A DNA stretch of 40,051 bases, from NCBI GenBank assembly GCA_002245135.1, contig NGBS01001206.1, forward strand, positions 1-40,051, written 5' to 3'. Source of the stretch: Proteromonas lacertae (taxonomy: Eukaryota). Shown here in pieces: positions 2,102 to 23,994 of the stretch. The notes beneath the pieces are model-generated. The model saw nothing but the letters and a program-made list of their open reading frames with translations. It had not been told where the DNA came from and made no database searches. Both the position numbers and the translations under genes were made by a program. Position 1 is the first letter of the stretch. Every line of letters begins with the position of its first letter.

Positions 2102-3259
2102 ATGATAGATCTTTATTTTTATGTTTCTTGTATATGTTTATCTGCAATTCTGTTAGAGATTTTTAATCATAAAACACAGCCAAATGTGTATTATTTAGAA
2201 GCAATAGAGATAAAAAAGAATTTGTATTTAACATCATACTATTATGATAGCAGATTTAAAGCGATTAGATTAATCTTATATAATTACAATAATAGTAATA
2301 TATACAATATATCATGTATATATGAATATCATAGAATAAGCCATATATGTAGAATGGAAGTATATAATAAATTAGCAGAAGATAATACATTAGTTAATAT
2401 TTTAATTTTTATCACTTCTTTTCCTGTAAAAGTCGTATTAAATAACAAAGCTATAATTATTAAAAATAAAAATAAAAATGAAATTCTCAAAAAGTCAAAT
2501 ATTACTGTTTGTATAGGAAAGATGGTTAATTTCTCAGCATACAATATGTTGATTGAAATGATTGAATCTTATCTTTATTTTGGAGTTGATCATTTTGTTA
2601 TTTATAAAACATCTGCTTCAAAAAATGTGAGTAAAGTATTAAACTACTACCAAGAAAAGGGAGTGCTAGATATAGTTAGATGGAAAAATGATTTTGATTT
2701 AAAGTATGCAAAGTATAAAACTTACGGTCAAAGAGTTAAAATAAACGATTGTTTCTACAAAAACTATTATACGACTAACAATATAATAATGACAGATTTA
2801 GATGAATTGCTTTGGCCGAATAATAAATTCACAATTATGGAAATGTTGGAAAATATTGAAAAAGTTAAGAAAAGAAAATATGATGTATATTATTTTCAAG
2901 AGAAAATATTTAAAAGAAATTATATACCATATTTCGATAGATTTGTTCATAACATTGAAGATTGTGATATTTTTGATTATCATGATTGTTGTGATTATAC
3001 TTGGAAATGGCCTAAAATGATAATTAGAAATTTAAAAAGAATTACATCATTAAGTATTCACTGGATTACAGGAAGTTTATATAATTATACTGAAACAAAA
3101 ATCAACAGTAAAATAGGATATATAAGACATACAAGAAGAATTTATCCATATATAATTAGTGGATTAATAGGAAAATGGTCAGTTTGTGAATCTGATATTA
3201 GAGAAGGTATAATCAAAATAAAATCACAACTTGCTAGGTTTATAATTTTAAATAATTAA
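2102..3259 (+). CDS. Glycosyltransferase family 92 (DUF23)-like, N-terminal signal anchor
   Basis: ITVCI, LIEMIESYLYFGVDHFVIY, GQ..INDCFY, TDLDELLWP (DxD). First ATG at 2102 precedes a hydrophobic segment. Confidence 0.85.
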   Translation: MIDLYFYVSCICLSAILLEIFNHKTQPNVYYLEAIEIKKNLYLTSYYYDSRFKAIRLILYNYNNSNIYNISCIYEYHRISHICRMEVYNKLAEDNTLVNILIFITSFPVKVVLNNKAIIIKNKNKNEILKKSNITVCIGKMVNFSAYNMLIEMIESYLYFGVDHFVIYKTSASKNVSKVLNYYQEKGVLDIVRWKNDFDLKYAKYKTYGQRVKINDCFYKNYYTTNNIIMTDLDELLWPNNKFTIMEMLENIEKVKKRKYDVYYFQEKIFKRNYIPYFDRFVHNIEDCDIFDYHDCCDYTWKWPKMIIRNLKRITSLSIHWITGSLYNYTETKINSKIGYIRHTRRIYPYIISGLIGKWSVCESDIREGIIKIKSQLARFIILNN

Positions 3260-3352
3260 AATCTATAAATATAAAATTCAATAATTAATTTAGTACAGTG
3301 TTTTACAATAGTAATGATATACAATATTTCATAATTCTTATAAATAAACTGT

Positions 3353-4255
3353 CTAAATTTTCCATCTACTGTGATTGATTTTAGAGCTTTTATTAATATA
3401 ATGTAAATATGAAGGAGGTATTTTTTCAGGATTTATATACCAGTCTGTGTGTAAAATAGAATATGGAGGCAAAGATCTATATGTATTACCTTTAAATCTT
3501 CCAAACATAGAAGTACTTCTTCTTAATTGAAATGTTGTGTCAATATCACATTGAACTAATGAATAATATTTATTTTTCCATATTATCTCATAATGAGTCT
3601 TAGATATTGCTTTATTTTGTTCATAAAAGAAGTAGTTGGATAGAGGATAGTAGTTTGGTAAATTGCTTACTACTATTGAAGGTCCAATAACATCTATTCC
3701 TTTGCATCTATCAAGAATGTATATATAAAAATGTAGTATATCATAAGGAGCAGTAATTAATGAAATATCACAATCAGTTAATATATAATACTTAAAGTGA
3801 TTAGTTTGAGTTATATTTTTAATAATAAAAGGTAATTCATTATTCACCATTTTAAACCAGTTCTTAGTTTTAAGTTTGATGAAAATGATTTCATTTAATT
3901 CAATTAGATTTTTTAAATAGTTTTCAGTTTGTTGATAAGTTGTAAAATGATCAAGTATATATATTAATAGTTTATATTTTCTTTTTAAATGTTTAATGTT
4001 CTTTAGCAAAATTTTAAGAGAAAATAGTCTATCTCGGCTTAGTATAAATATAGGTATAATTGAATTATAGAAATAATTATTTATTTTGCTAAAATTACAT
4101 TTTAACTTGTTATATACATTAATATTTTGGTTAAATATATTTAAATATACATATTCATTATTTTGATTTACCTTTAGACTAATTTTTGGTTTGTATTCAT
4201 AATTATATAATATTATAGAAAGAAATATAATATTCAATATAAAAAATATGATCAT
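3353..4255 (-). CDS. GT2-like (GT-A) glycosyltransferase
   Basis: IPIFILSRDRL, IYILDH.TTY, YYILTDCDI (DxD), DIDTTF, PYSILHTDWY; N-terminal TM segment. Confidence 0.75.
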   Translation of the reverse strand: MIIFFILNIIFLSIILYNYEYKPKISLKVNQNNEYVYLNIFNQNINVYNKLKCNFSKINNYFYNSIIPIFILSRDRLFSLKILLKNIKHLKRKYKLLIYILDHFTTYQQTENYLKNLIELNEIIFIKLKTKNWFKMVNNELPFIIKNITQTNHFKYYILTDCDISLITAPYDILHFYIYILDRCKGIDVIGPSIVVSNLPNYYPLSNYFFYEQNKAISKTHYEIIWKNKYYSLVQCDIDTTFQLRRSTSMFGRFKGNTYRSLPPYSILHTDWYINPEKIPPSYLHYINKSSKINHSRWKI

Positions 4256-4395
4256 TATAATCAGGATACTATCAAAGTTAGCTAGGTTAAAAAGTATTAT
4301 TTGGTTGTATTTCCTATTATTTTACTTTTATCTACGCTTTGTCATATTATTAATTAAGATATACAAAAATATATAAAAATATCTAATTAAGAATA

Positions 4396-5319
4396 ATGAT
4401 AATGAAATATTTGATTTTAATATTATTCTTTTCTTTGTATAGTATATTATTATATTTGTATATATCACTAATGTATATAACATATGAGTATATTTTTATT
4501 ACATGTTATTTTCAAGACGAAAAGATAAATAATAGAAAAGTACATAGTTTAGAGAATTATAAAAAATGGATAGATACTTTCTTCAAGAATGTTAAAAAGA
4601 ATGTGATTGTATTTACAGACAATAGAAAATTATTACAACAATATAAACCTTTAAGAATATTTTATTACAATAGTATTGAAGAAGTTCCAATTAATATCAA
4701 CAAGTCTAATCTTTATAAGTATCAAATGAAAATAGAGCCATGTGTATATGAAAGAAGTTGGAGAAGTAAAATGATATGGAATTCTAAGCTATATTTTATG
4801 AAAATTGCAATTAATTATTACTATTCTCCAACATATATATGGATTGACATAGGATGCATGAGATACCAACAGAATTATATTAATTTACCTGATTTAAAAA
4901 AAATAAAACAACTATCATCTAATAATGAAATGAATTTCTTTATAACTAGAAGAAATTCATTTATTCCAGAGAAAATACTAAGTTATAAGTGCTTATATAT
5001 AATTGCAACATCATTTTTTGGTTCAAAACTTGCTGTAGAAAAATTCGCTAAAGCATTTTATAATGTTTTGGATGAGTATCTGCTACATAAAATATATTTT
5101 GGAACAGAACAAAACCTCTTCGATTATATTACATTAAAATATTACAATAATTCTTTAATCTATCCTTTATATCTATCTAAATGTAATGAAAGAAGTACAT
5201 TTTGGGAATTCTTAAAATATTATTCAAATTATAAATGTTCAGAAACAATTATTCCATTTAAATATTATACTAATATAAAGTATATGTCAATTAAATACAC
5301 AATAAAATGTAATTGTTAA
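4396..5319 (+). CDS. HtrL/YibB (WlaTC)-family putative glycosyltransferase
   Basis: FITCYF, YKKWI, VIVFTD, IWNSKLYFMKIAI, YIWIDIGCMR, FFGS, GTEQN; N-terminal TM segment. Confidence 0.75.
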   Translation: MIMKYLILILFFSLYSILLYLYISLMYITYEYIFITCYFQDEKINNRKVHSLENYKKWIDTFFKNVKKNVIVFTDNRKLLQQYKPLRIFYYNSIEEVPININKSNLYKYQMKIEPCVYERSWRSKMIWNSKLYFMKIAINYYYSPTYIWIDIGCMRYQQNYINLPDLKKIKQLSSNNEMNFFITRRNSFIPEKILSYKCLYIIATSFFGSKLAVEKFAKAFYNVLDEYLLHKIYFGTEQNLFDYITLKYYNNSLIYPLYLSKCNERSTFWEFLKYYSNYKCSETIIPFKYYTNIKYMSIKYTIKCNC

Positions 5320-5370: not shown

Positions 5371-6129
5371 CTAGTATAGATAGATTTTACATAATCCTAA
5401 TTTTGTTGATTTTATCCCTATATGTTCATATTTAATTCCTCGATGTTGATCATTGTTACTGAATAAGAAAGCTAAATATAATTTTCTTTTCAAAAAATAT
5501 AATCCTGTTTTATATTCTGATATATATACATTTATCATTTTTAATATTCTACTCTTATACACTGTAGGGCCATTCAAAAAATTTCTATTTTCATAAGGAT
5601 TAATTAGTTTTATCATATTCATTTTTTCATTATTTATTATTATTGAAGAATAACTTCCATTCTTTACAACCATTTTTCTTAGTATAACTCCATATATATT
5701 TTTTGATAAAGATAATGCTGTAATTGAATCCTCCAAAAAATTGTGTCTAGTATAATTATATATTTCTTTGTTTATAATCCAATCTTCTTCTAGCAAAAAG
5801 ACATAATTATAATAAATGTAAGAGAATAGGATTTTAAACGAGTATTCATAATTCTTGGGGCTTATAAAAAAGGTATTTCTTAAATTATAATTAGTTCTTA
5901 TTATGTATCTTTCTAAAGTACCTTGATCAATAAATATAATTGTATACTCTAATTTTTGGTCATATTTCAGTAAATGTGAATATAAAGAGAATAATGTTTT
6001 ATTTAAATAAGTATATCTATTACATGCAGTTATCATTATTTGAATTGTTGTGTAGTAACTTAAATGAAATATATTTAGAAAAATTAACGATTCTAAAATA
6101 CAAAATATAACTGATATATATATAAACAT
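5371..6129 (-). CDS. GT-A fold (GT2-like) glycosyltransferase
   Basis: IMITACNRYTYLNKTLFSL, FIDQG, YVFLLEEDW, C-terminal YEHIG; N-terminal TM segment. Confidence 0.7.
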   Translation of the reverse strand: MFIYISVIFCILESLIFLNIFHLSYYTTIQIMITACNRYTYLNKTLFSLYSHLLKYDQKLEYTIIFIDQGTLERYIIRTNYNLRNTFFISPKNYEYSFKILFSYIYYNYVFLLEEDWIINKEIYNYTRHNFLEDSITALSLSKNIYGVILRKMVVKNGSYSSIIINNEKMNMIKLINPYENRNFLNGPTVYKSRILKMINVYISEYKTGLYFLKRKLYLAFLFSNNDQHRGIKYEHIGIKSTKLGLCKIYLY

Positions 6130-6152: not shown

Positions 6153-6995
6153 ATGAAAATTGTAATTTTGTGGTATGTAATTTTATTTATTAATTTAATG
6201 TATATATCTCTATACTTTTACACATTCAACTCATTTGAATGTTGTAATATAAAGAAATACAACCAAATTTCATATTATGATTTAGGTTCAAACAATGGAG
6301 ACTCATTATTATGGCTTTTCGGATATAAAAATAGAAACAATTCATATCATGTGCCTTATCCTTTTTTTCAACATTTTCCAACTAATAAAGTAACTGTACA
6401 TGTATTTGAAGCAAATCCTCTTTTATGTAATTTTATAGAAGAGAATGTTGATTTTTTAAAAACAGTAACAAATATGTGTAATTTTTATGTTAACTGTCCT
6501 GTTGTTGTATCAAATAGAAGCGGATTTATAAATTTCAAATCCACTTCAGGAACATTAGGAAGTTCTGCATATTATAATAAATCAGAAAGAGGTGCTAAAA
6601 TAATGAAAATAAGATCAATCGATATAGTAAGTTATTTTATGTTACATATAAGGCATAATGATTTTAACATTTTAAAATTTGATATAGAAGGTGAAGAATA
6701 TTACATGATTCCTAGAATGATTAAAGAAAATATTCTCCATTGCTTTGATTTAGTGTTTTCAGAATTTCATCCTTTCATAAATAATCCTGTAGGTATTGAA
6801 GAATCTTATAAAATATTCAATAATTTCAAAAATTATATGATTGAAAATATGATACCATATTTTGAAGAATATAATATTAGCAAAGATTTAATGAAAATAT
6901 ATCATGCAAAAATTAATTTATTATACAATTTTAGAAAAGATATATTTAATGAGTATAAATCAGAAATAATTAATAATAATTTCATTCATCTCTAA
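6153..6995 (+). CDS. FkbM-family SAM methyltransferase
   Basis: YYDLGSNNGDS, VHVFEANP, LKFDIEGEEY, SEFH; N-terminal TM segment. Confidence 0.85.
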   Translation: MKIVILWYVILFINLMYISLYFYTFNSFECCNIKKYNQISYYDLGSNNGDSLLWLFGYKNRNNSYHVPYPFFQHFPTNKVTVHVFEANPLLCNFIEENVDFLKTVTNMCNFYVNCPVVVSNRSGFINFKSTSGTLGSSAYYNKSERGAKIMKIRSIDIVSYFMLHIRHNDFNILKFDIEGEEYYMIPRMIKENILHCFDLVFSEFHPFINNPVGIEESYKIFNNFKNYMIENMIPYFEEYNISKDLMKIYHAKINLLYNFRKDIFNEYKSEIINNNFIHL

Positions 6996-7222
6996 ACATA
7001 GTAGATAAAAATATCATATAATTTTGTTTAAATAATTAATAGTAGATAAAAAATATTAATTCTTAAGAGCTGGAAAGTCTGATACCCATTGCACCATCTC
7101 CTATCTATCCACTATGAAGAACCTTTGATTTAGTTACTAGTATTAATGAATGATTACTTATACCTGTCTAAAAAAGAAATAAAAAAGTTGAATTGAGTGA
7201 GGTTTGATCAGATTTTTATCTT

Positions 7223-8050
7223 TTAGTCTTCTGAATCACGTTCCTTATCCGTAGATGCGTTTACTACTACTTCTGATGACTTCGCCGGGTAAGGAGTTGC
7301 TTCAGAAGCTAGATTCAGATGCTTTGCTGGAGGATCACTTGAAGCAGCTCGCGATGGTACTGAGGGTTTTGTTATCGATATCTTCTTCGGAGGACTACTA
7401 AGCTGTTTTTGTCTCCTCATTGATTCTATCCTGAGCCGGTGATGATCTTCATATTGTCTTAAGCGATGATACAGACTCAAGAGACAGCACATCGGAAGTG
7501 ACTTTACCTTTGGATCTACGTGAAAGTTGATATGTCCATCTTTGATAGATAAAACTATCTTGGCCTGGCAAGACTTCTCTTTGAGGTGAACAGCATCACA
7601 TGGAAATGAAATAATCTTATCGAACATCCCATCATGGTCGATTAGATCATTGTTGTCCTTGACTGTCTTAATAATCTCATGTATACTGTGTTGTATAAGC
7701 TGATTAATTATATCCCTTGTTTTATCTCTGGAGTTGATGGAGATGCCTGATTGTTGATTCTTAGTAGGTTTCCCAGATCTACATCTTGGACAACATAGAT
7801 AATAGTCTCCATTGGGCTTTAACATCATCGATGAAGCGAAGCGCATATGGCATCTACTGCAGGACATAATCTAGGCTGTGAGTTAAGCGTTCTCTTCCAA
7901 GGCTTTACGTTCTTCATGGCATCGGGCTATTGTCTTCTGCTTTGCCTTTCGTAATAGAGCTCTACAAGAACTACAACAGCTGTATGCTCTTCCATCAGCT
8001 TCAGATTGGAACTCCTTCTTACATCTACTACTTTTGACGATGGATTGCAT
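7223..8050 (-). pseudogene. Cys-rich (zinc-binding) orphan; ORF 7223-7867 extends in frame to an ATG at 8050 through two stops
   Basis: MQSIVKSSRCKKEF...YSCCSSCR...EENA*LTA*IMSCSRCHMRF...YLCCPRCR: a tandem repeat of the same Cys motif in one frame. Confidence 0.6.
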
Positions 8051-8718
8051 GGTTACCAATTAAGTATAAAAATAACTAGAAATATCTTAATGCCTTGAGT
8101 GACTATAATAATAGACTGTGTATTTACATTATGATGTTGACATCCTCATAGTTAATGTCTCTTTTCCTAGAAATAAGTTCTTACTCATATCTAGGAATGA
8201 TGATTAGTAGAAAGTCTGTAACTGGTTACTACATACTGATCACTTAGATAAGCTATTGGAATTTAGCAACTAAGTCCAGGATCTATTTTCTATGTCCCTA
8301 TTTTTAAACCTTCCTAACGATGTCCTTAAGTCCGGCCAGTTGATCTCATTCCAGTGTTAGGGTATCTGGTACTGTACTTTATAGTGAACTGTTGATTACA
8401 GATTCATCTCAATTCATTTTTTTCTTTAGAATTCGGATCTTAGAAGTTGAGGGCGATCTCCTGAGTTGATGAGGCAAGGCTATGTAGGAGGTGGTTCAGA
8501 TATAAGCAGTAGCTGTACTGGGGTTCGAACCCGGAGGGGATGGGATGTTGGTACCTGGTCTGCCCACTAGCATTTTATAGTTTAAATGACATATATCATC
8601 CCATAATAAATAATGTTCAAAATGTAATATTCACATATGTTGAAGAAGAAATAAATATAATAAACCAACCAAAAGTTCAAATGTATTTTTGCTTTTAAAA
8701 TTCTTATAATCTTCTTTG

Positions 8719-9090
8719 CTAAAATTGTAACTCAATATTTTTCATTTCATCGTTGCTAAAGTATAAATTCATATACTCATTTCGATCCAATGTTTCTTGG
8801 TGCTTGATAGAGATTAACTTCTGATTATCAAAATTACACGAAAAACAATGATAAACTGCTGTTGCTGACTTCTCTAATTCGATGTAGTTGAATTGTGGTG
8901 GACTTTGCTTCTTCTTTGATTTTTTGCTGTCATCATAAGCCAAACTTTGAATATACATTTCGTCGCAAAATGTCTTTAAATGCTGGATGTTACGACTCAC
9001 TTTCTGATAGAACTCATAAGCCTGTCCCTTTAATGGAAGCTGGGAGCATAATTCTGAATTGGTTGGTTGTTTGACTCTGTCTGCTGGCAT
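8719..9090 (-). CDS. Hypothetical protein
   Basis: 123-aa ATG ORF with normal composition; no recognised motif. Confidence 0.55.
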   Translation of the reverse strand: MPADRVKQPTNSELCSQLPLKGQAYEFYQKVSRNIQHLKTFCDEMYIQSLAYDDSKKSKKKQSPPQFNYIELEKSATAVYHCFSCNFDNQKLISIKHQETLDRNEYMNLYFSNDEMKNIELQF

Positions 9091-9339
9091 TTTTGATTGA
9101 ATGATTGAATAATTAATTTTCTATTAAAGTAAAAAAATGAAAAAAATAAAATACTGAAAATGAGTAAGAAAAGTGTGAATGAAAAAAAAACGGTTTTTCT
9201 TTATGCAATTTTTAAAGGGGGGTACAAAAAATAACTTTCAAAATCAAATACGAAAGAAGACTATATAAAATTAAATATTTATGAATGGTTTTTGAATTTC
9301 AATCTCAGGTTTATTAATAGGAATAATTTCTATTTCTGT

Positions 9340-9660
9340 TTATAATGGTTCTTCATCTTCATTATCACTAGCATTTCTAGAATTTATTCTACTATTTTCA
9401 GGTGTTAAAGTAAATGGAATAGCAGAAACAATAGTAGATTTACCTAAAGCTCTATTTATTACAGGTTCTGGTTCATTTAATATCTCAGTGATTTCTGCTG
9501 GACAATATCTATGATATAACCATACTACAATTTTTTTAACTTTATAAAGAATCCATAATAACATACATACAAAAAATATAAGACCTTCTTGCTTTAGACT
9601 TGTTAATGTATCATTCATATCTTTAAGCATAGTTGAATATTGTGTATTAATAAATGACAT
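9340..9660 (-). CDS. Small single-pass membrane protein
   Basis: 106-aa ORF with hydrophobic GLIFFVCMLLWILY followed by basic residues. Confidence 0.55.
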   Translation of the reverse strand: MSFINTQYSTMLKDMNDTLTSLKQEGLIFFVCMLLWILYKVKKIVVWLYHRYCPAEITEILNEPEPVINRALGKSTIVSAIPFTLTPENSRINSRNASDNEDEEPL

Positions 9661-9723
9661 TTTATGTGAAATTATTTATATATAAAAACGCATAGAAATA
9701 TAAAAATGAATTTTAAACCAAAG

Positions 9724-10320
9724 TTAATTAATTATACAGGTAGGTGATGTAGTTAGATCTACTGTAGCTACCCCCGGGATAGAACTTGTAGGTGTTTCTA
9801 CTTTAGCAATATCTACCTTTGGTCGACCCTCGGCAGTGGAACTATTCTCTACTTTACGCTTCTTATCTTCTCCACTATTATCACTTCCTTTCTTTACTTC
9901 TTCATATCTTCTCTTCTTCTTATTTCTACACTCTGTACAAGATTTATAGAATACACCTTCACTCTTATAACCAAATTCATCATTAGCTTTCTTCTTACCA
10001 CAAGTACTACATACATGTGAATCTGGATCTAACTTTGTTATATCCTTTCTTTTTTTAGATTTAGATTCACTTTGTTTTTCTTCCTTCACTTCTTCTTCTT
10101 CCATTGTTATATCAATATCATCACCTGGTTGTTCACTCCATTCTAGATCATCTTCATACTCTTCAATCACAGAATACATACCATCCAACATATCCTTAAA
10201 TACTTTAATGATTAATGATTTTACTTCAGACATATCATTCTCATAGAGATTCTTATACATTTCACCTTCTTGTAAGTGTTTTTCAATATTAGCATCCAAT
10301 TCGTTTTGTATATCACTCAT
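9724..10320 (-). CDS. Acidic/basic protein with a CxxC...CxxCR zinc-binding motif
   Basis: CSTCGKKK...YKSCTECRNKKKRR; NLS-like basic runs. Confidence 0.65.
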   Translation of the reverse strand: MSDIQNELDANIEKHLQEGEMYKNLYENDMSEVKSLIIKVFKDMLDGMYSVIEEYEDDLEWSEQPGDDIDITMEEEEVKEEKQSESKSKKRKDITKLDPDSHVCSTCGKKKANDEFGYKSEGVFYKSCTECRNKKKRRYEEVKKGSDNSGEDKKRKVENSSTAEGRPKVDIAKVETPTSSIPGVATVDLTTSPTCIIN

Positions 10321-10446
10321 TTTAATTTATGTAAATTATTACAAAAATAGCAAGAAATTTATGAATGAAAAGAATTATGTAATATTATGTTTATTTCTAT
10401 TCAGCCAATCAAAAACAATATTCAATTAAAACCAATGATTTAAGAA

Positions 10447-10797
10447 TTAGTTATGAAATCTTAGTCTCTCTTCAATGATGTTTTTTTCATCAATACCATA
10501 ACGCTTTAACATCTTTGTTTTTCTGCGCTCCTCTTCTGGATCAACCCATTTTCTAGGGCGTATGGTTGCTTGTGCTACTCTAGTTGGTTTATGAATTGCA
10601 CGCCATTCTTCATACTTTCTGTCATCCTCATCAGCTGTATCAGATGTATACCACATTACTACTGGAGGTGATGGTGGTGGTTGAGCTACTATTCTAGCTA
10701 CTTCACTTTCAATGATTGCATAGATTCTTTCAAATTCTTCATCTTCACGCTTATTTCTATCTTCTATATTAACATTCTCGATCCAAATTCTTGACAT
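10447..10797 (-). CDS. Hypothetical protein
   Basis: Likely ATG at 10797 (MSRIWIENV...); charged protein with a PPPSPP segment. Confidence 0.55.
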   Translation of the reverse strand: MSRIWIENVNIEDRNKREDEEFERIYAIIESEVARIVAQPPPSPPVVMWYTSDTADEDDRKYEEWRAIHKPTRVAQATIRPRKWVDPEEERRKTKMLKRYGIDEKNIIEERLRFHN

Positions 10798-10943
10798 TCT
10801 TTTGAAATTATGATTGATAAAAAACAATAAGAAAAAGTTAAATGAAATTATATACAAAAAATCAAAAGAAAAATTTTAACCCATAAAATTACTCATACAC
10901 AAAAATATATAAAGAATTTTAAACTCACCAGCTTCCTCCAGTA

Positions 10944-14030: not shown

Positions 14031-14031
14031 C

Positions 14032-15180
14032 ATATTATATATTGTAATTTTATTTATTATAATTATTCTTAATTTTAATAAAAGCAATTTGTCAAATATA
14101 AGATATACAAATCCTCAACACATTATTCGTTTATCATTTCATTACTTAAGCAAATTAAAAAACCTAAAATGCAAAAATCGAAAGAATATCTTATGTATAG
14201 ATTTCAATAATCGTAGTATTAATAATGTTTATCATTTCGCAACTTTTAGAATTAATAAAACTTATAAATTTATTACAAGTAAAATAATAACTACCTCATA
14301 TGATATAAGAATTAATGAACATAATGCATCATTTAAAAGAATTATCTTCAGTTTAAATATCTATGGATTCAAGCATGCTTTATTATCCTATGAAGGAAGT
14401 ATTCATTCTCAATGTTGGGATTTAACAATAACAGGAGGATGCAAATGCTATAATATACCACATATTTATTTCAATGTGTCAAATAATTATAAATACGATA
14501 AAGTAATATCAATTAGTCACCATTGGGGAAATGCTGTCTTTCATTCAATTGTTGAATGTCTAACAAAAATAGGATTTTATATTCCATATTTAGTTGAAGA
14601 TCAGTCAATAAAAATACATACAATGAAATCTGCTAATATAAAGTATTTACATTTCCTAGGATTTAATGATTCAAGATTATTATATGGAAATATATATGCA
14701 AAAAGATTGTTAGTATTAGAAAAAGGTGGATGTGGATCAACTCCACCTTTAATTCATTTAATATACTTAAGGATTTACATAAGAAAAAGGATAAAAACTA
14801 AACCTATGTATGACATAGTACTAATCAAAAGATTTGGCATTAGAGAAGTGCTGAATTTTGAGGAAATATTAAATATTATAAGAGAAAAGTTCACATTCAA
14901 AAATATAACAATATTTTATCCTAATACTACTTTTATAAATACATTAAATTATTTTAAATACGCCAAATTAATTATTGCTCCTCATGGAGCTGGTTTATCA
15001 AATCTAATAGTTACAGAAAACTGTAAAGTTATAGAATTCCTTTACAAAAATTATTGTTATTCCTCATTAGCTAATAAACTAGGATTAGAATATTATGGAA
15101 TTAAAGAAAAGTTATATGAAGGAAAATTTAAAGTAAACATCTCATTATTTAAATATTTAATTGAAAATATTGACATATAA
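14032..15180 (+). CDS. GT61 (DUF563) glycosyltransferase; apparent ATA start
   Basis: GNAVFHSIVECL, IIAPHGAGLSNLI, VIEF. In-frame hydrophobic ILYIVILFIIIILN begins at ATA 14032. Confidence 0.8.
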   Translation: MLYIVILFIIIILNFNKSNLSNIRYTNPQHIIRLSFHYLSKLKNLKCKNRKNILCIDFNNRSINNVYHFATFRINKTYKFITSKIITTSYDIRINEHNASFKRIIFSLNIYGFKHALLSYEGSIHSQCWDLTITGGCKCYNIPHIYFNVSNNYKYDKVISISHHWGNAVFHSIVECLTKIGFYIPYLVEDQSIKIHTMKSANIKYLHFLGFNDSRLLYGNIYAKRLLVLEKGGCGSTPPLIHLIYLRIYIRKRIKTKPMYDIVLIKRFGIREVLNFEEILNIIREKFTFKNITIFYPNTTFINTLNYFKYAKLIIAPHGAGLSNLIVTENCKVIEFLYKNYCYSSLANKLGLEYYGIKEKLYEGKFKVNISLFKYLIENIDI

Positions 15181-16878
15181 ATGAAACAAAATGTTTATAT
15201 TCAAGAACTAAGAGGTATATCCATTGTTTTTATTATACTTTATCACTTTTTAAATGATTTCAAAACATTTGGATTTTTAAGTGTATCCATTTTTCTTCAA
15301 ATATCAGGATATATTATAACATATACTTCTCTTAGCAGGAAAAAAGCAATGAAAGATTTCTATTATAAAAGAATGATAAATATATTTCCTCAGTTACTTT
15401 TTACTATTACAATCATATTATATATATATAGAAATGAAAGTTATAATAGACTTAATATGCTTTATGATGAAACTATATCTACTATTGAAATAATATCAAA
15501 TATATATTATTACAAAAGAGAAATTAATTATTTTAGTCAATTTGATAATCCTTCAATTACTCTACATTTTTGGTACATTTCTCTTCAGCAACAAATATAT
15601 ATATTGTATCCATTCCTATTTATTCTTTATACTTATTGTCACATTATATTGTATTTGCTATTAATAGCAAGTATATCATTATTTTATTTATACTTAAATT
15701 CAGATCCATCATTTTCTTATTATATAATCTTGTGTAGATTATATGAATTTATAATTGGTATGCTATGCAATAATAAAACATATTCAGTTATTTTAAGATA
15801 TACTATTAGTGGTAATTTTATTGTTTATATTATTATACTAGTACAATTGCTAAATATTACTATTCAAAAGTTATATAAGTTTATCATAATAAATATATTA
15901 TCACTATTATTACTAAATAGTATGAATTTAAATTCATTGAATATAAACTTCATTCTAAATATTTCATTGTTATATAGAATTGGTAATTTATCTTATGAAA
16001 TATACCTTGTTCATTATCCATTGATTAATTTTTGCAATTCAAGCATTATAAAATATATCTTGTTAATTGCTATTTTGTCCTATATTCTTTCATTTACAAA
16101 AGTAATGAATGATAAATATAAGTTTCGAATTTCTTTGATTTTACCTGTGTTAATAATTTCATACATAATATATAAAAAGTCTATAAATAATTATAAATTT
16201 AAAGAGATTTTTAGCATTACTTTAAATGATATGAATAAAGAATATTTAAAGACTATGAAGTGTATAAAAAAATACTATCCTATACCAAAATTGCATAATA
16301 TTTGTTTAATGTTATTAGGTGATTCACATTTAGAACAGTGGTTTCCTTCAATTATAGATATTGCAAAATCAAAAAAATACTCAATTATATATATAAGGTT
16401 TAATGTTAGAGATATAGAGTTAGAAAAATTTCAAATTGTAAAAGATACTATTAATGAATATAAATATATCAGTATTATACCCATAATATCAATATATATG
16501 AATCATCAATGGATAAATAATTATTCACTATTTCATTATCACTTCAAGAAATATATAAAAATTCTGCTTAATCAAACATTGTTCATTTATATTATTGAAG
16601 ATATACCATACTTACATACCAATCCTTTAAATTGCCTATATTCTTTAAGTGAAATAGATAGATGTTATTCAATATTAGGAATAAATTCATCTATTGAATC
16701 AATACCATTTATAAAAAATAACAAATTACATTATTGTAATATGAATAAACATATTTGTGAAAAGAAAATAATACATTTTATTAGAAATGGTATAATAGTT
16801 TATAAAGATAGCAATCATTTGACTTTATCTTTTTCAAAGACATTAACTAACAACTTAAATAACTGTATGTTGCTATAA
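15181..16878 (+). CDS. OafA/OatA-type acyltransferase-3 plus SGNH O-acetyltransferase
   Basis: IQELRGISI..ILYH, FLQISGYIIT, HFWYISLQQQIY, SYEIYLVHYP, GDSH, DSNHL. Confidence 0.9.
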   Translation: MKQNVYIQELRGISIVFIILYHFLNDFKTFGFLSVSIFLQISGYIITYTSLSRKKAMKDFYYKRMINIFPQLLFTITIILYIYRNESYNRLNMLYDETISTIEIISNIYYYKREINYFSQFDNPSITLHFWYISLQQQIYILYPFLFILYTYCHIILYLLLIASISLFYLYLNSDPSFSYYIILCRLYEFIIGMLCNNKTYSVILRYTISGNFIVYIIILVQLLNITIQKLYKFIIINILSLLLLNSMNLNSLNINFILNISLLYRIGNLSYEIYLVHYPLINFCNSSIIKYILLIAILSYILSFTKVMNDKYKFRISLILPVLIISYIIYKKSINNYKFKEIFSITLNDMNKEYLKTMKCIKKYYPIPKLHNICLMLLGDSHLEQWFPSIIDIAKSKKYSIIYIRFNVRDIELEKFQIVKDTINEYKYISIIPIISIYMNHQWINNYSLFHYHFKKYIKILLNQTLFIYIIEDIPYLHTNPLNCLYSLSEIDRCYSILGINSSIESIPFIKNNKLHYCNMNKHICEKKIIHFIRNGIIVYKDSNHLTLSFSKTLTNNLNNCMLL

Positions 16879-16903: not shown

Positions 16904-18414
16904 TTATTTTTTACAATTACATTTAATTTCCATTTTCATATCTTCACAGTTTAAATATTTTGATATTTCCTTTAGTATCGTATTTTCATTACTTCCAGTT
17001 AATCCTTCAGATATATATTTTAATGTAAAGAATAAATTAAACGGTGTAATATATCTATTTTGATTCTTCTTCAATATTGTGTATAAATTCTGATTTATTA
17101 GTTGTTTGTTTATAATCTATATATTTGAAGATATTAATTAATACTATAATCAGTGGCGGAAATGTGTTTTCTATTTCATTATAATACTTACCATAATGAA
17201 TTCCATGATCTCCAACAATAAATGTAATTAATTTATTTAATGTATTAGTTTCTATAGTTATATTATATTTTATACCATTTAGAATGCTAAAATAATTCTT
17301 TAACTCTTCATCAATACCTGCTACTGATAATTGTTTTGGCTAATTGTTTTATTATATAGGAGAATGATATACATCATGAGTCTCTGAAAAAGATGCAAAT
17401 GTAAAAGTAGAAACATTATGTTTGGCATAGTACATATGAGCTTTTTTCATGTATTTAAGAAACATATACGATATTCGTTTTCCATGTATACATCTTGGTC
17501 CAGTACCATATGCTCCTGTTTTGTTATAACTAATAATAATAAACTATAATATACTTATTAATTGAAGGATGACAAGCTAAATTTATGTTATGATCAGCGC
17601 CATATTTTACAGGCTTACCGTAATATTTTAAATTAATGTCACAGAATCCAGCTAAAGATAGTGTTTTATATCCATTATCATGATAGTAATTAAATAATGA
17701 CTTTTTCTAGAAAATTAAAAATATATACAACTGATTTAGTATTATTATTGTATTTTTCTCCATAGAATAATGGAATATAATTTGGTTTTGAATTAAGTCC
17801 AACAGTATGATATCTTAACATATCAAATATATAATAATTGCTTGATAGAGAAAGCAGGAATTTTTGTGTTTCGATAAACTGTTGATTAAAAGCCATTCTA
17901 GATAAACCATCAAATAGAAATAAATTTACAGAAATTCTATTATTTATGTGAATAATTCTTTGAGGAATAAAATGTAAAAATAAATAATTATTGCTATGTG
18001 ATTCATAATATTGTATTTCATAATCTAATATTCTGTTAATTACCTATTTCATAATAACAATTATACATAAGAGGTGGAATAGAAAAATCTAAAACTCTCT
18101 AATCTAATCCCATAAGTGGATGTATTGAATAAATATATTTTAAATTTGACTTTTGTTAAATTTGTAGTTCTATGTGTATTACTACAACTATACGGACTAT
18201 TCATTGGAAAATTCTCTTTTCTTGTATAGGAACAATTGATTTTGCATAAACTTTCACTATCTTCATATTTATTACTTGAAATCCAACTATAGCATAATGT
18301 ATTTTTCAAAGAAAAATAGTGTCTGCTTTCACTAGCACAAAATATATGAAACAATAGAAATAATATAAGAAATATAGTATAACTTATTATATAAAATGAT
18401 ATAATTTTCATCAT
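16904..18414 (-). CDS. DUF229 (alkaline phosphatase/sulfatase-like) protein with 5-6 tiny introns
   Basis: Splicing GT-AG introns 18044-18066, 17707-17728, 17530-17554, 17340-17372 and 17117-17144 (plus optional in-frame 17252-17275) gives one ORF. Motifs NLFLFDGLSRMAF, YHTVGLNSKPN, RCIHG, GDHG, NQNRYITPFN, C..CNC; stop at 16904-16906. Confidence 0.85.
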
Positions 18415-18463: not shown

Positions 18464-19249
18464 ATGAAAGCTTTAATTATTATACTTACGATTAATTTAT
18501 TATCCTTTATATATATTATATATGTAATTTTTAAACATACAAATATGAAATTTAATAGATATCCCAATAAAGACTACATCACTCTAGTTCATGAATCATA
18601 TAATAATATTCCCGATTTGAACATAATGTTACAAAGTTTAAAAAATATATATACTAATGAATCTGTAGATTCATTCTACATTTTAGATTCTATTAGGTTA
18701 TTATCAAAGTCATTTAGAAGTCAAAAATATGCAAATATGTTATCCAAAAAGGATGGTGATATTTCTGCTTATTATGACCAAATGCTTATATATAGAAACG
18801 AAATAATCAACAGTAATAAAATATATACAATTAGAAATATATGCGAAATAGGATTTCAAGTCGGTATAGGATCTCTTACATTCCTTACATCTTTGAAACA
18901 TAATTTAGTCTATTATGGATTTGATTATGGTATGAATTATTCTAAATGTTGTTATAATATTATTTCTAATTATTTTAATATGAATATTATTTGGGGAAAA
19001 AGTGAAGAAACTGTGCCTCATTCTAAGAATATTGTGTGTGATATAATTCATATTGATGGTGATCACAAACAAATATCTATTTATAACGATATAATTAACA
19101 TGAAACAATTATCACATAGACATACACTTTTATTTTTGGATGATGTGAATATAGATAGTAATACAATAATTAAAGCAAAAAGAGATAGAATAATAGAAAA
19201 CATTAATTGCTTTAATTGGAAACCATTTTGTATATGTAACTATAACTAG
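18464..19249 (+). CDS. Class I SAM methyltransferase (Methyltransf_24-like)
   Basis: ICEIGFQVGIGS, GFD, WGKSEETVP, CDIIHIDGDH, FLDD; N-terminal TM segment. Confidence 0.85.
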   Translation: MKALIIILTINLLSFIYIIYVIFKHTNMKFNRYPNKDYITLVHESYNNIPDLNIMLQSLKNIYTNESVDSFYILDSIRLLSKSFRSQKYANMLSKKDGDISAYYDQMLIYRNEIINSNKIYTIRNICEIGFQVGIGSLTFLTSLKHNLVYYGFDYGMNYSKCCYNIISNYFNMNIIWGKSEETVPHSKNIVCDIIHIDGDHKQISIYNDIINMKQLSHRHTLLFLDDVNIDSNTIIKAKRDRIIENINCFNWKPFCICNYN

Positions 19250-19290: not shown

Positions 19291-20238
19291 ATGAAAATAT
19301 CATGCATTTTAGCCACATTTATTATTATCTATTTCATTTTATATTGTTTTATGTATATATCATTATTAAATATGCTATATTTATTAAAAATAAAAGGTAT
19401 TTCACCAAAAACATATAAGAAGCTATTAACATATAATACTAGTATTTCTTTGTATCAAGTTAAAAGTGTTTTATATATTCAAAAGCCAATTCATAAAATT
19501 AAATACAATTCATTCATTGTTTTTGGTGTTACATCAACATCAGATTCATTTAACATTAGAATGGTTATTAGAAAGACATTAGGAAAACAAATGAAATATT
19601 ATAATTCATTGCTATTCTTCTTTATAGCAAATTCTAATGTAGATTATTATAATTATTTATTATCGATAGAAGTAAAGTTATACAATGACGTAATCCAATT
19701 ATCTCTATATGAGAGTTATTTAAATCTTACCATATTAACAATATGGATGATGAAATGGGTAGTTGATAATTGCAAATTTATATATCTTATAAAAAATGAT
19801 CAAGATGTTATTCCTAATATAAAACTAACATACATTTATTTACTATCATTAATAAATACAACTTGCTCTTATGGAATTTTAAGTAAAAACGAAGTAGTAT
19901 GCAGAAATAAAAATTCAGTACATTATATCCCTTATTATTCATACAAGAAAAACAATCTACCTTCATATATATTTGGATATTTTGCAATTTATAATTATAT
20001 ACTTATAAACTATATTAACAATATTTCTTTTACTGTATATCCAATAATATACAAAGAAGATGTTCATATTGGTTTATTGACTTCAAAAAGCAATTATTCT
20101 TTCTGCAAAATAAGGCATAAAATAGTGAGTAAAATAAAAGAAAATAATGTTACAAATATAGATAATAACACTATATCAATCCATGGAGTAAATTATATCA
20201 ATTATCTAAAACTGTATAAGTTAATAAATGGTATGTAG
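19291..20238 (+). CDS. GT31 beta-1,3-galactosyltransferase-like
   Basis: RMVIRKTLG, EVKLYNDVIQ, ESYLNLT, KNDQDV, EDVHIG. Confidence 0.85.
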   Translation: MKISCILATFIIIYFILYCFMYISLLNMLYLLKIKGISPKTYKKLLTYNTSISLYQVKSVLYIQKPIHKIKYNSFIVFGVTSTSDSFNIRMVIRKTLGKQMKYYNSLLFFFIANSNVDYYNYLLSIEVKLYNDVIQLSLYESYLNLTILTIWMMKWVVDNCKFIYLIKNDQDVIPNIKLTYIYLLSLINTTCSYGILSKNEVVCRNKNSVHYIPYYSYKKNNLPSYIFGYFAIYNYILINYINNISFTVYPIIYKEDVHIGLLTSKSNYSFCKIRHKIVSKIKENNVTNIDNNTISIHGVNYINYLKLYKLINGM

Positions 20239-20251
20239 TATATAAATTGCA

Positions 20252-21967
20252 TTAGCATCGTCTGTAGTAGTATTTTCCATGGACATAAAAGTTACACATT
20301 TTGTTTGTTTTATTAACTGTATGATATGAACCAATAATTCTAGAAAAGATAGAAGTAAAATGTTTATTAAACATTTGTGTATATAAAGGCGATAGATGTG
20401 ACATTGTATCATAAACACTAATTCTGTTATAAATGCAAGGGCAGATTTTGTTTTTACATATAATATTATTAAATGAAATGTATTGTGTGTTATTAATTGG
20501 TGGAATTATTCTGGGAAATATAGTTACATTCTTTCCAATAAACAGATCACATTTTAGATTATGTTTTTCATAACATTGTAAACATATATTATTTCTATAC
20601 AATTGTGGACTATCTTCTATGTATAATATTTTAGGAGATATAGAGCTTAAAAACATAATCATTTTAATTAAGTTATATTTAATTTCATTGTCACTATAAA
20701 TTTTAGAGGTATAAAATCCTAAAATTATCAATATCCAATTAATTTTTATACTATCAAAGTAACCTTTGTATTTATTTTTGCAGTTATCAATTTTCAAATG
20801 AAAATAAAAGTAATGAATCATTATACTATGAGATTTTGTGAATGGTAACATAGCTGGAATCCACTGTTCTAAATGAGAATCTCCTATTAATAAGAAATTA
20901 TTGCTGGATATAGAAACATTATCTGTAAAATGGCAATGACTACACCATAAAGTAGATGAATGTTTTATTGCCTCTTTTACAATATTAATATTATCATCGT
21001 TCTTTTTTATCTTTTTTGATAGATTTATAAAATTGTTCATGACAACAATGCACACTATAATTATTGTAGTAATTAGTATTGGATGTTTTCTTAACACACA
21101 TTCAATTAAATAATTATTTGTTATTGCAGATAGAAATGAAAAAACAACACTATAAAATGGATTATATTTAAAACTATACATATAATGATATAAATAAAGC
21201 GAATATGATATTTTACCACAATAAATAATTGATCTACTAAATATAAAATAAGAATTCACATTTGACTGATTCATACATATTCCATTTGATATATATGATA
21301 TAAATACGGTATTGATAAATATATTACTAAGTTTATATGTATTTAATAATATAATCAATATTATAGCTATATTGATGTTTATATTAATAAAATATGACAA
21401 TCTGTGAAGATAATAATACCATAATCTAGTAATAGTATTATAATAATTGATATTACCTTGAATATATATTTCAGTAACAAAATTATATATGAAAGACAAT
21501 ATGATTATAATATAATAAATATAAGATAAATCAGTAATATAGCCAAAAACAGTATGAATAATATATAATTGAAAAATAACAGATACATACCATAAATGAT
21601 TGAATAAAGACTTATTCTCTTTGACAAAGTAATCATTTTCATTCATTATTAATTTATAATTATATACATAACCAAATATATAAAAAATATCATTAACATC
21701 ATTATCGCTAATTATGTTCTGTCTAATAAGATAAAAAGCTGTATATATTGTTAATATGTAATAACTTGGTGTTATTCTACAATATCTATGACAAATATTC
21801 GCAACAAAATTATAGGTATGTTTAATTGACGATAAATACCCTGATATGTTAATAAATACCACAACTGATAAAAATCCGTATTTAAAGAATTGAACATTAT
21901 TATGATAAAGAATAATCAATAAAATACAATATCCTTTTAAAATTTCAATATCATATCTGTAATTCAT
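20252..21967 (-). CDS. Second acyltransferase-3 plus SGNH O-acetyltransferase
   Basis: DIEILKGY..ILYH, FINISGYL, HLWYVSV..QLY, SYSLYLYHY, GDSHLEQW, C-terminal DTMSHL. Confidence 0.85.
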   Translation of the reverse strand: MNYRYDIEILKGYCILLIILYHNNVQFFKYGFLSVVVFINISGYLSSIKHTYNFVANICHRYCRITPSYYILTIYTAFYLIRQNIISDNDVNDIFYIFGYVYNYKLIMNENDYFVKENKSLFNHLWYVSVIFQLYIIHTVFGYITDLSYIYYIIIILSFIYNFVTEIYIQGNINYYNTITRLWYYYLHRLSYFINININIAIILIILLNTYKLSNIFINTVFISYISNGICMNQSNVNSYFIFSRSIIYCGKISYSLYLYHYMYSFKYNPFYSVVFSFLSAITNNYLIECVLRKHPILITTIIIVCIVVMNNFINLSKKIKKNDDNINIVKEAIKHSSTLWCSHCHFTDNVSISSNNFLLIGDSHLEQWIPAMLPFTKSHSIMIHYFYFHLKIDNCKNKYKGYFDSIKINWILIILGFYTSKIYSDNEIKYNLIKMIMFLSSISPKILYIEDSPQLYRNNICLQCYEKHNLKCDLFIGKNVTIFPRIIPPINNTQYISFNNIICKNKICPCIYNRISVYDTMSHLSPLYTQMFNKHFTSIFSRIIGSYHTVNKTNKMCNFYVHGKYYYRRC

Positions 21968-22071
21968 ACTTTTAGAAGTTGAATGAAGTATTTACTTATA
22001 ATAGGTAAATATTTAAATGTAAATGATATATATATAAAAGAATAACAGCAAATCCTATAAAAATACTGAAT

Positions 22072-22911
22072 TTATTTTCTTTTTGCTACAATATTATTCT
22101 TTATGGTCTTATTGCAATCAAATTTTTTTATGATTTTATATCCCATATCATCAAGAATTTTAAACATATTCACTATTTCATATACATCGTCTTTATTCTT
22201 TTTTCCGCATTCGATTTCCATGTGAATGAATTCAATTTCATGATTTTTAAAGAATTTTCTTCCTCCTTTAATTAATTCATACTCGCCACCTTCTACATCA
22301 ATTTTTATCATTGAAATTTTAGTAGGGATAAGTTTGTCAAATTGATCTAATAATTTAACATGTACTGTTTCTTTATAATCAAAATGATTATAATAGAAAG
22401 AAAAATAACCCCAATTGTTCTTAGCTATACTCATAACTTGATGATCTTCTCTGTTTCCTAAAGCATAGGGATATATTGTTATAAGACTTGAAAATTTTGG
22501 ATTACTAAAGGTAGTAACACTAAATGGAAATAAATTATTTGGAAGAGGTTCAAATGCATATACCTTTATACCTGCATATGCAAAGACAAAAGAGCATGAA
22601 CCGATATTTGCCCCAAAATCTACAAATACACCATCTCTACTTCCTGATAAATAGATATTATATATATCTTGACATTCACTCCACCTACCTCTTTCTCTTA
22701 TATAGTTTGACACATAATCGTTACTTCTAATAACTTGCGCAAATGATATATTTATGTATTTAGTTTTTGTAAAGAAATAAGATTGTTCATTTATTATGGT
22801 TGGAGCTACTACATGTTTTACCATCCTTATATAGGTATTTCGACTATGATAAAGAAATAATAGTAAAGCTAATACAAAAATAATATATATACTAATTATG
22901 TATATTTTCAT
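22072..22911 (-). CDS. FkbM-family SAM methyltransferase
   Basis: FVDFGANIG, VYAFEP, PYALG, IKIDVEGGE; N-terminal TM segment. Confidence 0.9.
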   Translation of the reverse strand: MKIYIISIYIIFVLALLLFLYHSRNTYIRMVKHVVAPTIINEQSYFFTKTKYINISFAQVIRSNDYVSNYIRERGRWSECQDIYNIYLSGSRDGVFVDFGANIGSCSFVFAYAGIKVYAFEPLPNNLFPFSVTTFSNPKFSSLITIYPYALGNREDHQVMSIAKNNWGYFSFYYNHFDYKETVHVKLLDQFDKLIPTKISMIKIDVEGGEYELIKGGRKFFKNHEIEFIHMEIECGKKNKDDVYEIVNMFKILDDMGYKIIKKFDCNKTIKNNIVAKRK

Positions 22912-23040
22912 TATAGTTTAATCAATATATTGTTTGATTTATATTAAATACAAGCTTTTAATAGAAATACGTTATTATACTAAATTCTTTTAATATAAAT
23001 TTTAGTATTATACTTTACAATTAATTAGCATTTTATAAAT

Positions 23041-23994
23041 CTAGATATAAATACATTTTACATTTGATCTAGAACAAGACAAATTATAATAAGTACTTAA
23101 ATGTGATCCTATAGCTATGTCACATTGTGATATTAAATAATTATCAGCTAACAGTTTAATCCCACTTTCATAACTTCCTCCATGCATTGACCCATGTGGA
23201 TCTATTATAGGTCCTGGTATTGTGTAATTTAATACATAATCGTTAAATAGTTTATTAACTTTCTTAATAATCATATTAGAATCTGATATAATAAGCAATT
23301 TATAGTGATTAAATTGATTTAATAATTTATTAATAGATATTAAATACTTGTTAAATACTTTCGGTGAGTACCATATCGATGTTTTTGATAAATCTAATAG
23401 AAATCCAGTTCTAATATGCACCCCTATTACCGTTGATTTATATTTTAGTCTAATGAATTTTATGATATATTTAGCTACTCTATCACATGGCTGAAAAAAT
23501 ACATTTTGAATTAAGATATTCCACTCTTTTATATTTATTTTAGTAAATTTTATTAACTTTGATTCACGATATAGAGTATATACCACATTCATGAACCCAT
23601 GTAGTTTATATATAGATATTCTGCTGTAAGAATCTAATAGAGTTTTAATTGTATTGTTGACAAATCTAATCTCGATTGTATTTGTTATACTTATATTGTT
23701 ATTTAACATATATGATGGCATTTTGAAGTACAATATCATTTCTTTCCATCCAAAAATAAAAAAAGTGGATGAAGATACTAAGGACAAAAATATGCTGGAT
23801 ATTATTGTGGGAATTTTATTTCCCAGTCCACATTGAACCATAGTTTTATATATAACTAAATTCTTCCTTTTATGGTGGTTGTTGTTATATATCATTTTCT
23901 CTATTTTTCTTTCTGAGTAATTGAGAAGATTTACTTTTCTTATCATAGTAATCAATGATAATATAAATAATATTGAATAATTAATTATAGTCAT
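23041..23994 (-). CDS. NodZ/GT23-like alpha-fucosyltransferase
   Basis: CGLGNKIP, IGVHIRTG, LIISDS, DNYLISQCD, STYY. Confidence 0.8.
   Translation of the reverse strand: MTIINYSILFILSLITMIRKVNLLNYSERKIEKMIYNNNHHKRKNLVIYKTMVQCGLGNKIPTIISSIFLSLVSSSTFFIFGWKEMILYFKMPSYMLNNNISITNTIEIRFVNNTIKTLLDSYSRISIYKLHGFMNVVYTLYRESKLIKFTKINIKEWNILIQNVFFQPCDRVAKYIIKFIRLKYKSTVIGVHIRTGFLLDLSKTSIWYSPKVFNKYLISINKLLNQFNHYKLLIISDSNMIIKKVNKLFNDYVLNYTIPGPIIDPHGSMHGGSYESGIKLLADNYLISQCDIAIGSHLSTYYNLSCSRSNVKCIYI

Follow-up and report, generated by a model that had tools for sequence, protein, structure and literature searches.

We analysed a 40,051-nt stretch of contig NGBS01001206.1 of Proteromonas lacertae (the window; all coordinates are window positions) and found in it an island of 15 closely packed genes, most of which match families of glycan-modifying enzymes. 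The reading we favour, at a probability of about 0.55, is that this is a real, gene-dense set of glycan-enzyme genes in a eukaryotic nuclear genome, likely forming one Golgi or secretory assembly line in which a lineage-specific glycan, destined for the surface or for secretion, is built and decorated. The genes (g01 to g15) occupy two AT-rich stretches, five in 2102-6995 (cluster 1) and ten in 12129-23994 (cluster 2), and open reading frames (ORFs) are present at each of the positions at which an earlier note had placed them. Genes fill 93.7% of the first stretch and 96.9% of the second. Neighbours within a cluster are spaced by 0-140 bp, with a single 14-bp overlap, and divergent starts have 23-49 bp between them. 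Computed from base composition, the chance of a 250-codon open frame is about 3e-11 and the island ORFs are therefore real genes. Consistent with the claim that no housekeeping gene lies among them, no unrelated host gene was found inside either cluster among the ORFs scanned; a 5.1-kb block of higher GC content lies between the two. The island holds at least nine Pfam families plus the GT-A family of g07. Paralogues within the window share only 26-34% identity, and the FkbM pair (g05 and g14) gave no mutual blastp match at 1e-3. Duplication here is therefore old, and together with the diversity of families this indicates that the clustering did not come from recent tandem duplication.

Composition ties the island to its host. 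GC content along the window is 40.8% at 1-2101, 21.3% in cluster 1 (2102-6995), 30.3% at 6996-12128, 22.0% in cluster 2 (12129-23994), 32.3% at 23995-31369 and about 23.5% at 31370-40051. As a reference for composition we took the flanking gene for phosphoethanolamine N-methyltransferase (PMT). GC content at third codon positions (GC3) is 0.15-0.22 in the island genes and 0.155 in PMT, compared with 0.21-0.55 in the ORFs of the higher-GC blocks A and B described below (0.21-0.39 in block A). The AT-rich DNA is therefore the host baseline and the higher-GC blocks are the newcomers, which disfavours a bacterial or viral genome as well as recent transfer; the match in GC3 between the island and its PMT neighbour gives no hint of such a transfer. 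The three island genes tested have their closest relatives among AT-rich proteins, at 51-60% identity, which carry an N-terminal anchor in the case of g03 and g07; bacterial or phage homologues reach only 20-30%. The proposal of a chimeric locus, with genes of bacterial and eukaryotic origin brought together, is not borne out by these values.

The structure of g10 (16904..18414, minus strand) places the locus in a nucleus. Its coding sequence shows five frame changes, each of which (5/5) is bridged by a GTAT..TAG intron, of 23, 22, 25, 33 and 28 nt. Spliced by coordinates, the six exons give 1380 nt, or 459 codons, with zero internal stops, versus 32 stops in the unspliced sequence. These five spliceosomal-type introns indicate that the locus is nuclear and not bacterial or viral; with a hAT transposon relic nearby, they uphold the earlier description of the locus as eukaryotic. 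Only g10 needs splicing, and the other 14 of the 15 genes are intronless as had been stated, though g06 and g08 lack an ATG. The 33-nt intron (17340-17372, minus strand), the sole one with a length that is a multiple of three, contains an in-frame TAA TAA; in-frame stops in multiple-of-three introns have reportedly been described for the tiny introns of Paramecium. Introns below 30 nt are reported from ciliates, microsporidia, dicyemids and myxobolid myxozoans (PMC13644364). Dicyema, with a GC content of 36.7% and 6.2 introns per gene (PMC6736024), fits the window poorly, and a trichostome ciliate uses the standard code at 26% GC but has introns of about 100 nt (PMC11316547).

For family assignment the Pfam gathering score was the pass mark, with 14 island ORFs submitted whole and the fifteenth gene, g10, by exon. 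Ten of the 14 submitted ORFs matched a Pfam family at E<=0.01, and eight of the 14 passed the gathering score. Counting g10, nine of the 15 genes lie above it (GT92, GT61, GT31, FkbM twice, AT3 plus SGNH twice, Methyltransf_24 and DUF229), and most of the earlier family calls survived testing with hidden Markov models. No match in Pfam or NCBIfam was returned for four ORFs (g02, g03, g04 and g07). GT92, GT61, GT31 and DUF229 are mainly eukaryotic families. Nearly all of the proteins had also been said to bear an N-terminal anchor, and this proved correct. Requiring a 19-residue window with a Kyte-Doolittle mean >=1.6 near the N-terminus, we found a transmembrane (TM)-like 19-mer in 12/12 of the non-AT3 genes scored and in 0/5 control ORFs (PMT and four ORFs of the higher-GC blocks). 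With g10, judged by eye, 13 of the 15 genes encode an N-terminal hydrophobic anchor; the two AT3 proteins are multipass.

Among the glycosyltransferases, g01 (2102..3259, plus strand) matches the Pfam family Glyco_transf_92 (PF01697) at 5.3e-33 and 115.1 bits (cut-off 23), over profile positions 2-216 of 249. Its residues 1-22 are TM-like, its closest clusters in the ESM Atlas are eukaryotic GT92 proteins, and a PDB sequence search gave no match. The anchored GT61 enzyme g08 (14017..15180, plus strand) scores 60.5 bits against Glyco_transf_61 (PF04577; 2.7e-16, cut-off 27), and in the PDB its sequence matches only EOGT (0.0018). An anchored GT31 protein resembling beta-1,3-galactosyl/GlcNAc-transferases is encoded by g12 (19291..20238, plus strand; Galactosyl_T, PF01762, 4.6e-18, 66.1 bits, cut-off 23). 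It shows a 'DQD' motif by eye and matches B3GALT5 (7.4e-14) and B3GNT2 (3e-8) in the PDB.

The anchored protein g07 (13083..14030, plus strand) falls outside Pfam, and its assignment comes from its predicted structure. An AlphaFold2 (AF2) model (pLDDT 94.5), for a protein with 190 homologues, retrieved GT6 enzymes at E 5e-9 with Foldseek. VIA structure comparison gave Z 17.0 with BoGT6a (root-mean-square deviation 3.9, 219 residues aligned), 16.9 with LH3 GlcT and 16.1 with Mimivirus R699; LH3, GTB, UGGT, GT8 and glycogenin span 13.8-16.9. Both aspartates of D144-x-x-D147 are invariant in 50 aligned sequences; with PF03407 touched by only 2 of 50 family members, we assign no CAZy family. By this predicted fold we are confident that g07 is a GT-A glycosyltransferase, of the retaining type. 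Its best viral fold match is an uncharacterised Caudovirales protein (TM-score 0.70/0.84).

Two further anchored proteins, g06 (12129..13076, plus strand) and g15 (23041..23994, minus strand), had been called NodZ-like, a call that Pfam leaves below its cut-offs. For g06 the values are 0.007-0.013 for O-FucT and 0.018 for NodZ, and for g15 0.006 for NodZ; across g06, g15 and a decayed copy (d1, below) the NodZ model (PF05830) scores 14.3-22.2 bits against a cut-off of 28.3, with g06 and g15 at 14-16. A profile built from the three paralogues nevertheless finds NodZ (2hhc) as its top PDB match at E 0.0012, followed by plant FUT1 at E 2, and an 'HIRTG' motif is invariant in all three. With moderate confidence, from sequence similarity, we assign g06, g15 and d1 to the fucosyltransferase superfamily.

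The island also encodes enzymes that would modify sugars. Two anchored FkbM-family methyltransferases match Methyltransf_21 (PF05050, cut-off 22.7): g05 (6153..6995, plus strand) at 1.5e-7 and 32.1 bits, with a further match to the NCBIfam model fkbM_fam (TIGR01444; 2.4e-11, 44.3 bits, cut-off 37.7), and g14 (22072..22911, minus strand; TM-like residues 1-24) at 4.7e-17 and 63.1 bits. For the D-x-G-x-N-x-G motif of S-adenosylmethionine (SAM) binding, the pair shows, by eye, 'DFGANIG' and 'DLGSNNG'. A class I SAM methyltransferase of the Methyltransf_24 family is encoded by g11 (18464..19249, plus strand; 5.8e-9, 37.2 bits; TM-like residues 1-25). The multipass protein g09 (15181..16878, plus strand) has the OafA-like architecture of an AT3 plus SGNH O-acyltransferase, with 60.5 bits for Acyl_transf_3 (1.9e-16, cut-off 31) and 36.6 bits for SGNH (5.3e-9, cut-off 27). 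A second such protein, g13 (20252..21967, minus strand), passes for SGNH (2e-6, 28.1 bits, cut-off 27) and stays below the cut-off for AT3 (3.8e-4, 20.1 bits, cut-off 31); it is 29% identical to g09 over 564 aa. By eye, we recognise as candidate catalytic motifs 'LYH', 'GDSH' and 'DSNH' in g09 and 'LYH', 'GDSH' and 'DTMSH' in g13. No match to g09 was found in the PDB sequence search, and an AT3 alignment retrieved only two metagenomic matches, at 20-22% identity, too remote to inform on synteny. The intron-bearing gene g10 encodes a DUF229 protein (PF02995, alkaline-phosphatase superfamily), exon 2 alone scoring 34.4 bits (1.4e-8) against a cut-off of 25 and the remaining exons being too short to score.

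The three genes left over are anchored proteins of cluster 1. The 300-aa product of g02 (3353..4255, minus strand; TM-like residues 1-21) shows a DxD-like 'TDCD' motif by eye and has no hhalign match to the g07 family. That of g04 (5371..6129, minus strand; 252 aa, TM-like residues 1-25) has GT-A-like motifs by eye and no hhalign match. The earlier assignment of g03 (4396..5319, plus strand) to HtrL failed in Pfam: no family was matched even at E<=5, the HtrL_YibB model (PF09612) included, and what points that way is one language-model lead in the ESM Atlas (score 0.96). Homologues of g03 form five clusters at 54-60% identity without a precomputed Pfam domain, its AF2 model (pLDDT 55.9) is too poor for a structure search, and hhalign gives a 50% probability to a match with the g07 GT-A family across 47 columns.

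Taken as one assembly line, these proteins would divide the work as follows. The anchored GT-A and GT-B transferases (GT92, GT61, GT31, g07, the NodZ-like proteins and probably g02 to g04) would extend a glycan in the lumen, adding residues of the Gal/GlcNAc/Xyl/Fuc type. The two FkbM enzymes and the Methyltransf_24 enzyme would O-methylate it, the two AT3-SGNH proteins may transfer acyl groups through the membrane for its O-acetylation, and the DUF229 enzyme g10 could add or remove a phospho-type substituent. Higher-GC mobile or virus-like blocks, along with a foldback repeat family, probably divided what was a single island into the two clusters; this island may once have run continuously from about 2.1 to 36.5 kb before being broken by block A, block B, the foldback repeat and a hAT element.

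Several points weigh against an assembly line. Two of the genes (g02 and g04) have no family and g03 has a lead only, and the AUG-less genes g06 and g08 may be dead. Among the window ORFs scanned there are no genes for sugar-nucleotide synthesis, transporters or acceptor proteins. Both g03 (with five clusters in related organisms) and g07 (with many anchored AT-rich homologues there) belong to multigene families, and could therefore sit together without sharing a pathway. A proteome rich in I, L and F also gains hydrophobic N-termini more easily. When we searched the literature for an already described cluster of these families, only papers on plant cell walls came up, and we do not claim absence in print. 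To our knowledge, eukaryotes seldom have gene clusters with a coherent function, and the proven glycan ones are few and small. If the assembly-line reading is true, a 15-gene, multi-family secretory glycan island would be an unusually large eukaryotic example, found in a genome whose introns span 22-33 nt and whose local coding density is about 95%. The island points to a testable glycan bearing fucose, O-methyl and O-acetyl groups, and should the organism be parasitic or symbiotic, it would be a candidate locus for varying the surface in response to pressure from a host or pathogen.

The main rival to the glycan-pathway reading is a birth-and-death neighbourhood, in which expanded families of secretory enzymes accumulate, diverge and decay in a repeat-rich segment, each enzyme has its own substrate, and co-location marks only where copies survive. 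Families do recur within the window (FkbM twice, AT3-SGNH twice, NodZ-like three times, GT31 twice), g06 and g08 lack an ATG, many paralogue-like clusters of g03 and g07 exist in AT-rich relatives, and relics of mobile elements (a protease/PolB block, hAT and the foldback repeat) occur throughout. Mixed arrays of this kind, with GT92, FkbM, oac and DUF229 genes, are found on the chromosome arms of nematodes. Decayed copies had been announced at 31370-36480, and we found three pseudogenised copies there. The first, d1 (31370..32337, minus strand), is a NodZ-like copy with a start codon and an anchor, one frameshift near 32120, 33% identity to g15 by tblastn (2e-35) and a Pfam NodZ match at 7e-5; reading its break as a 20-nt GT..TAG intron would remove conserved residues, and by eye we take it as a frameshift. 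The second, d2 (35061..35598, plus strand), is a GT31 copy with an anchor and a frameshift near 35290 that ends after 35598, matching Galactosyl_T at 5.5e-14 on 35260-35598 and g12 at 32% by tblastn. The third, d3 (35834..36471, minus strand), consists of two broken ORFs with a hydrophobic N-terminus and no Pfam family. The idea of rapid turnover is thus only partly supported, since pseudogenised copies and mobile insertions show some turnover but the paralogues are old. That same age (26-34% identity) makes them poor candidates for local duplicates, at least ten different families share 17 kb that contain no unrelated gene, and their chemistries (extension, methylation, acetylation and a phospho-type step) complement each other as those of a pathway would. 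On balance we consider a birth-and-death origin possible but unlikely.

The layout of g06-g09 (12129-16878, plus strand) raises a stronger version of the assembly-line reading. Spacers between these genes are 6, -14 and 0 bp, the TAA stop of g08 directly abutting the ATG of g09. The genes g06 and g07 share one frame and are parted only by a TGA and 6 nt. The open frame of g06 begins at 12081, and that of g08 at 14014, overlapping the end of g07. An in-frame AG stands just upstream of each anchor (12127-12128 for g06, 14015-14016 for g08). When we looked upstream for an exon with an ATG that a short intron could link to the frame, g06 yielded none and g08 nothing but implausible fusions. The layout could reflect polycistronic expression, trans-splicing, initiation at non-AUG codons or loss of the start. 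One could go further and propose an operon-like eukaryotic glycan supergene, in which several tightly packed members share transcripts, the AUG-less pair is started by a trans-spliced leader, non-AUG initiation or termination-reinitiation, and the foldback-flanked cassette recombines or moves, making it a counterpart of an O-antigen locus in organisation and content. We think this improbable. The abutting and AUG-less genes also raise the question of how transcription and translation proceed in compact eukaryotic loci.

The AT-rich blocks could instead be giant-virus DNA, from a viral genome or from a fragment that became endogenised, with a cluster for virion glycosylation. A GC content of 21-22%, coding density of 94-97% and genes on both strands would suit such an origin, the HtrL_YibB clusters near g03 in the ESM Atlas are labelled mostly Nucleocytoviricota, the g07 fold resembles many giant-virus and phage GT-A proteins (including R699, above), and giant viruses are reported to carry glycan gene clusters (PMC10117803). 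Set against this are the five introns of g10, the GC3 shared with PMT, and the hAT and foldback elements embedded in the same AT-rich DNA. The Mimivirus early-promoter motif AAAATTGA is absent upstream of all 15 starts. IMG/VR contains no close relative of g09 or of the g03 family, and the g07 family reaches only 21-28% identity there. No hallmark family (major capsid, A32 ATPase, PolB, VLTF3) was found among the window ORFs scanned, although in a 40-kb window hallmarks could lie beyond the ends. We consider a viral origin very improbable.

Equally remote, in our judgement, is a mobile cargo, in which cluster 2 (12.1-24.0 kb) would travel or recombine in one piece, either between foldback repeats or inside a Maverick/Polinton-like element. 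The foldback repeat (repeat R) is present as a full 1086-bp copy at 32604..33689, a self-palindrome of 92.8% over 1095 nt, and as partial copies at 11295-11822, 24089-24492 and 7144-7224, at the edges of the higher-GC blocks. The copies at 11295-11822 and 24089-24492 flank cluster 2 exactly, in direct orientation, and are 92.7% identical over 343 nt. Block A (7144..11822, 30% GC), which splits the island, is edged by pieces of repeat R; block B (24089..31369, 32% GC) opens with a copy of it. In favour, block B holds a protease of the Maverick type, an adenovirus/Ulp1-type cysteine protease (26720-27412, plus strand; Peptidase_C48 2.6e-8, Peptidase_C5 2e-5), and a weak 150-aa fragment of protein-primed PolB (24915-25370, plus strand; DNA_pol_B_2 0.005, sub-cut-off); palindromic repeats stand at the block edges. 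However, no integrase, capsid or packaging ATPase was detected in the window ORFs scanned, no target-site duplication was identified, repeat R also stands alone at 32604-33689, and the composition of cluster 2 is that of cluster 1 and PMT, not of the flanking blocks.

Least credible of all is that the g06-g09 block is a polysaccharide operon recently acquired from a bacterium or phage. The operon-like spacing and the bacterial or phage relatives of AT3-SGNH, FkbM and g07 in glycan loci could be cited for it, but the bacterial and phage homologues are only 20-30% identical against 51-60% for AT-rich relatives, GC3 is fully host-like, g06-g08 have a eukaryote-style N-terminal anchor (g09, the AT3 protein, being multipass) and GT61 (g08) best matches EOGT.

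The remaining features of the window lie in the blocks and around PMT. The five minus-strand ORFs of block A have no Pfam family, and small pieces of the block recur at 34862-35086. Two of these ORFs (7223-7867 and 9724-10320, both minus strand) each show, by eye, a zinc-finger-like CxxC...CxxC-R-x-K pattern, and one of the two has a weak PHROG match to a Lar-like protein (1.4e-4), the single, uninformative match that PHROGs gave for the ORFs of blocks A and B. A 428-aa ORF in block B (28260-29546, minus strand) has no Pfam, PHROG or PDB match and no relatives in IMG/VR; its by-eye reading as a DDE integrase was unconfirmed by the empty PDB search. A 58-nt direct repeat, 95% identical between 1197-1254 and 26389-26446, is common to block B and the left end of the window, where GC content is 41%, and this sequence similarity suggests that the left end belongs to the element family of block B, as a further copy or a fragment. 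The hAT relic is a transposase dimerisation domain at 34281..34502 (plus strand; Dimer_Tnp_hAT 5.1e-6, 26.6 bits, cut-off 21.4). Between the decayed copies and PMT, two short ORFs (36702-36875, minus strand; 37603-37839, plus strand) look by eye like fragments of a transposase N-terminus or helix-turn-helix. No RNA genes were detected in the window (Rfam at gathering threshold; tRNA scan).

The flanking host gene for PMT (38281..39399, minus strand) is of the two-domain type and matches PDB 5wp4 at 1.9e-76. Its best named matches, at only 35-39% identity, are spread across fish, amphibians, molluscs and plants. The long ORF begins only at 39399, and homologues P0020 and P0021 share its 'MIEKP' start. 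By eye, the sequence at 39400-39720 (minus strand) can still be aligned with methyltransferase domain 1 of plant PMT, GxGxG included. It is interrupted by an in-frame TAG TGA TAG, shifts frame at least twice and has one candidate GT..TAG intron of 29 nt, which would mean either decay of this domain or an unusual gene structure. Elsewhere, 19 viral-contig loci hold g07-family members; of four checked, three have a g07 homologue adjoining glycan genes, all on phage-like contigs, which speaks for the assembly-line reading. The neighbours are a GT10 fucosyltransferase and an NAD epimerase (L011:7081-8777), two GT17 genes and a Methyltransf_24 gene (L006:7986-13777), and a GT1 gene and UDP-glucose dehydrogenase (L005:7989-9818).

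The earlier note had likened the island to a bacterial O-antigen or capsule locus, and the likeness stands in gene content only. Such loci also pack glycosyltransferases together with FkbM methyltransferases and AT3 (OafA-type) O-acetyltransferases, with very short gaps and some genes abutting (0-6 bp). Unlike them, the island has alternating orientation, type II-style anchors and a member with five introns, and Pfam scans of its ORFs show no flippase or polymerase (Wzx/Wzy), ABC exporter, chain-length regulator, initiating phosphoglycosyl transferase or sugar-nucleotide genes. The glycan clusters of giant viruses (Megavirinae, chlorovirus) are similarly AT-rich and dense and combine glycosyltransferases with sugar-modifying enzymes (PMC10117803, PMC9614988), and the likeness extends to the fold of g07 (R699) and the Nucleocytoviricota lead for g03. 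The island differs in its introns, its cellular-gene composition, its 21-28% identity to viral proteins and a window without hallmark or sugar-nucleotide genes. The galactosaminogalactan cluster of Aspergillus is likewise eukaryotic, nuclear and made of linked genes, there serving one extracellular glycan; it comprises five genes of other enzyme families, against at least 15 here, and its co-function is proven whereas the island is known from sequence (PMC8224951). Animal Golgi type II glycosyltransferases (B3GALT5/B3GNT2, EOGT and GALT-1-type GT92) share with the island both their families and the layout of an N-terminal anchor followed by a lumenal catalytic domain. Genes for the animal enzymes are mostly dispersed and intron-rich, whereas those of the island lie side by side and 14 of the 15 are intronless.

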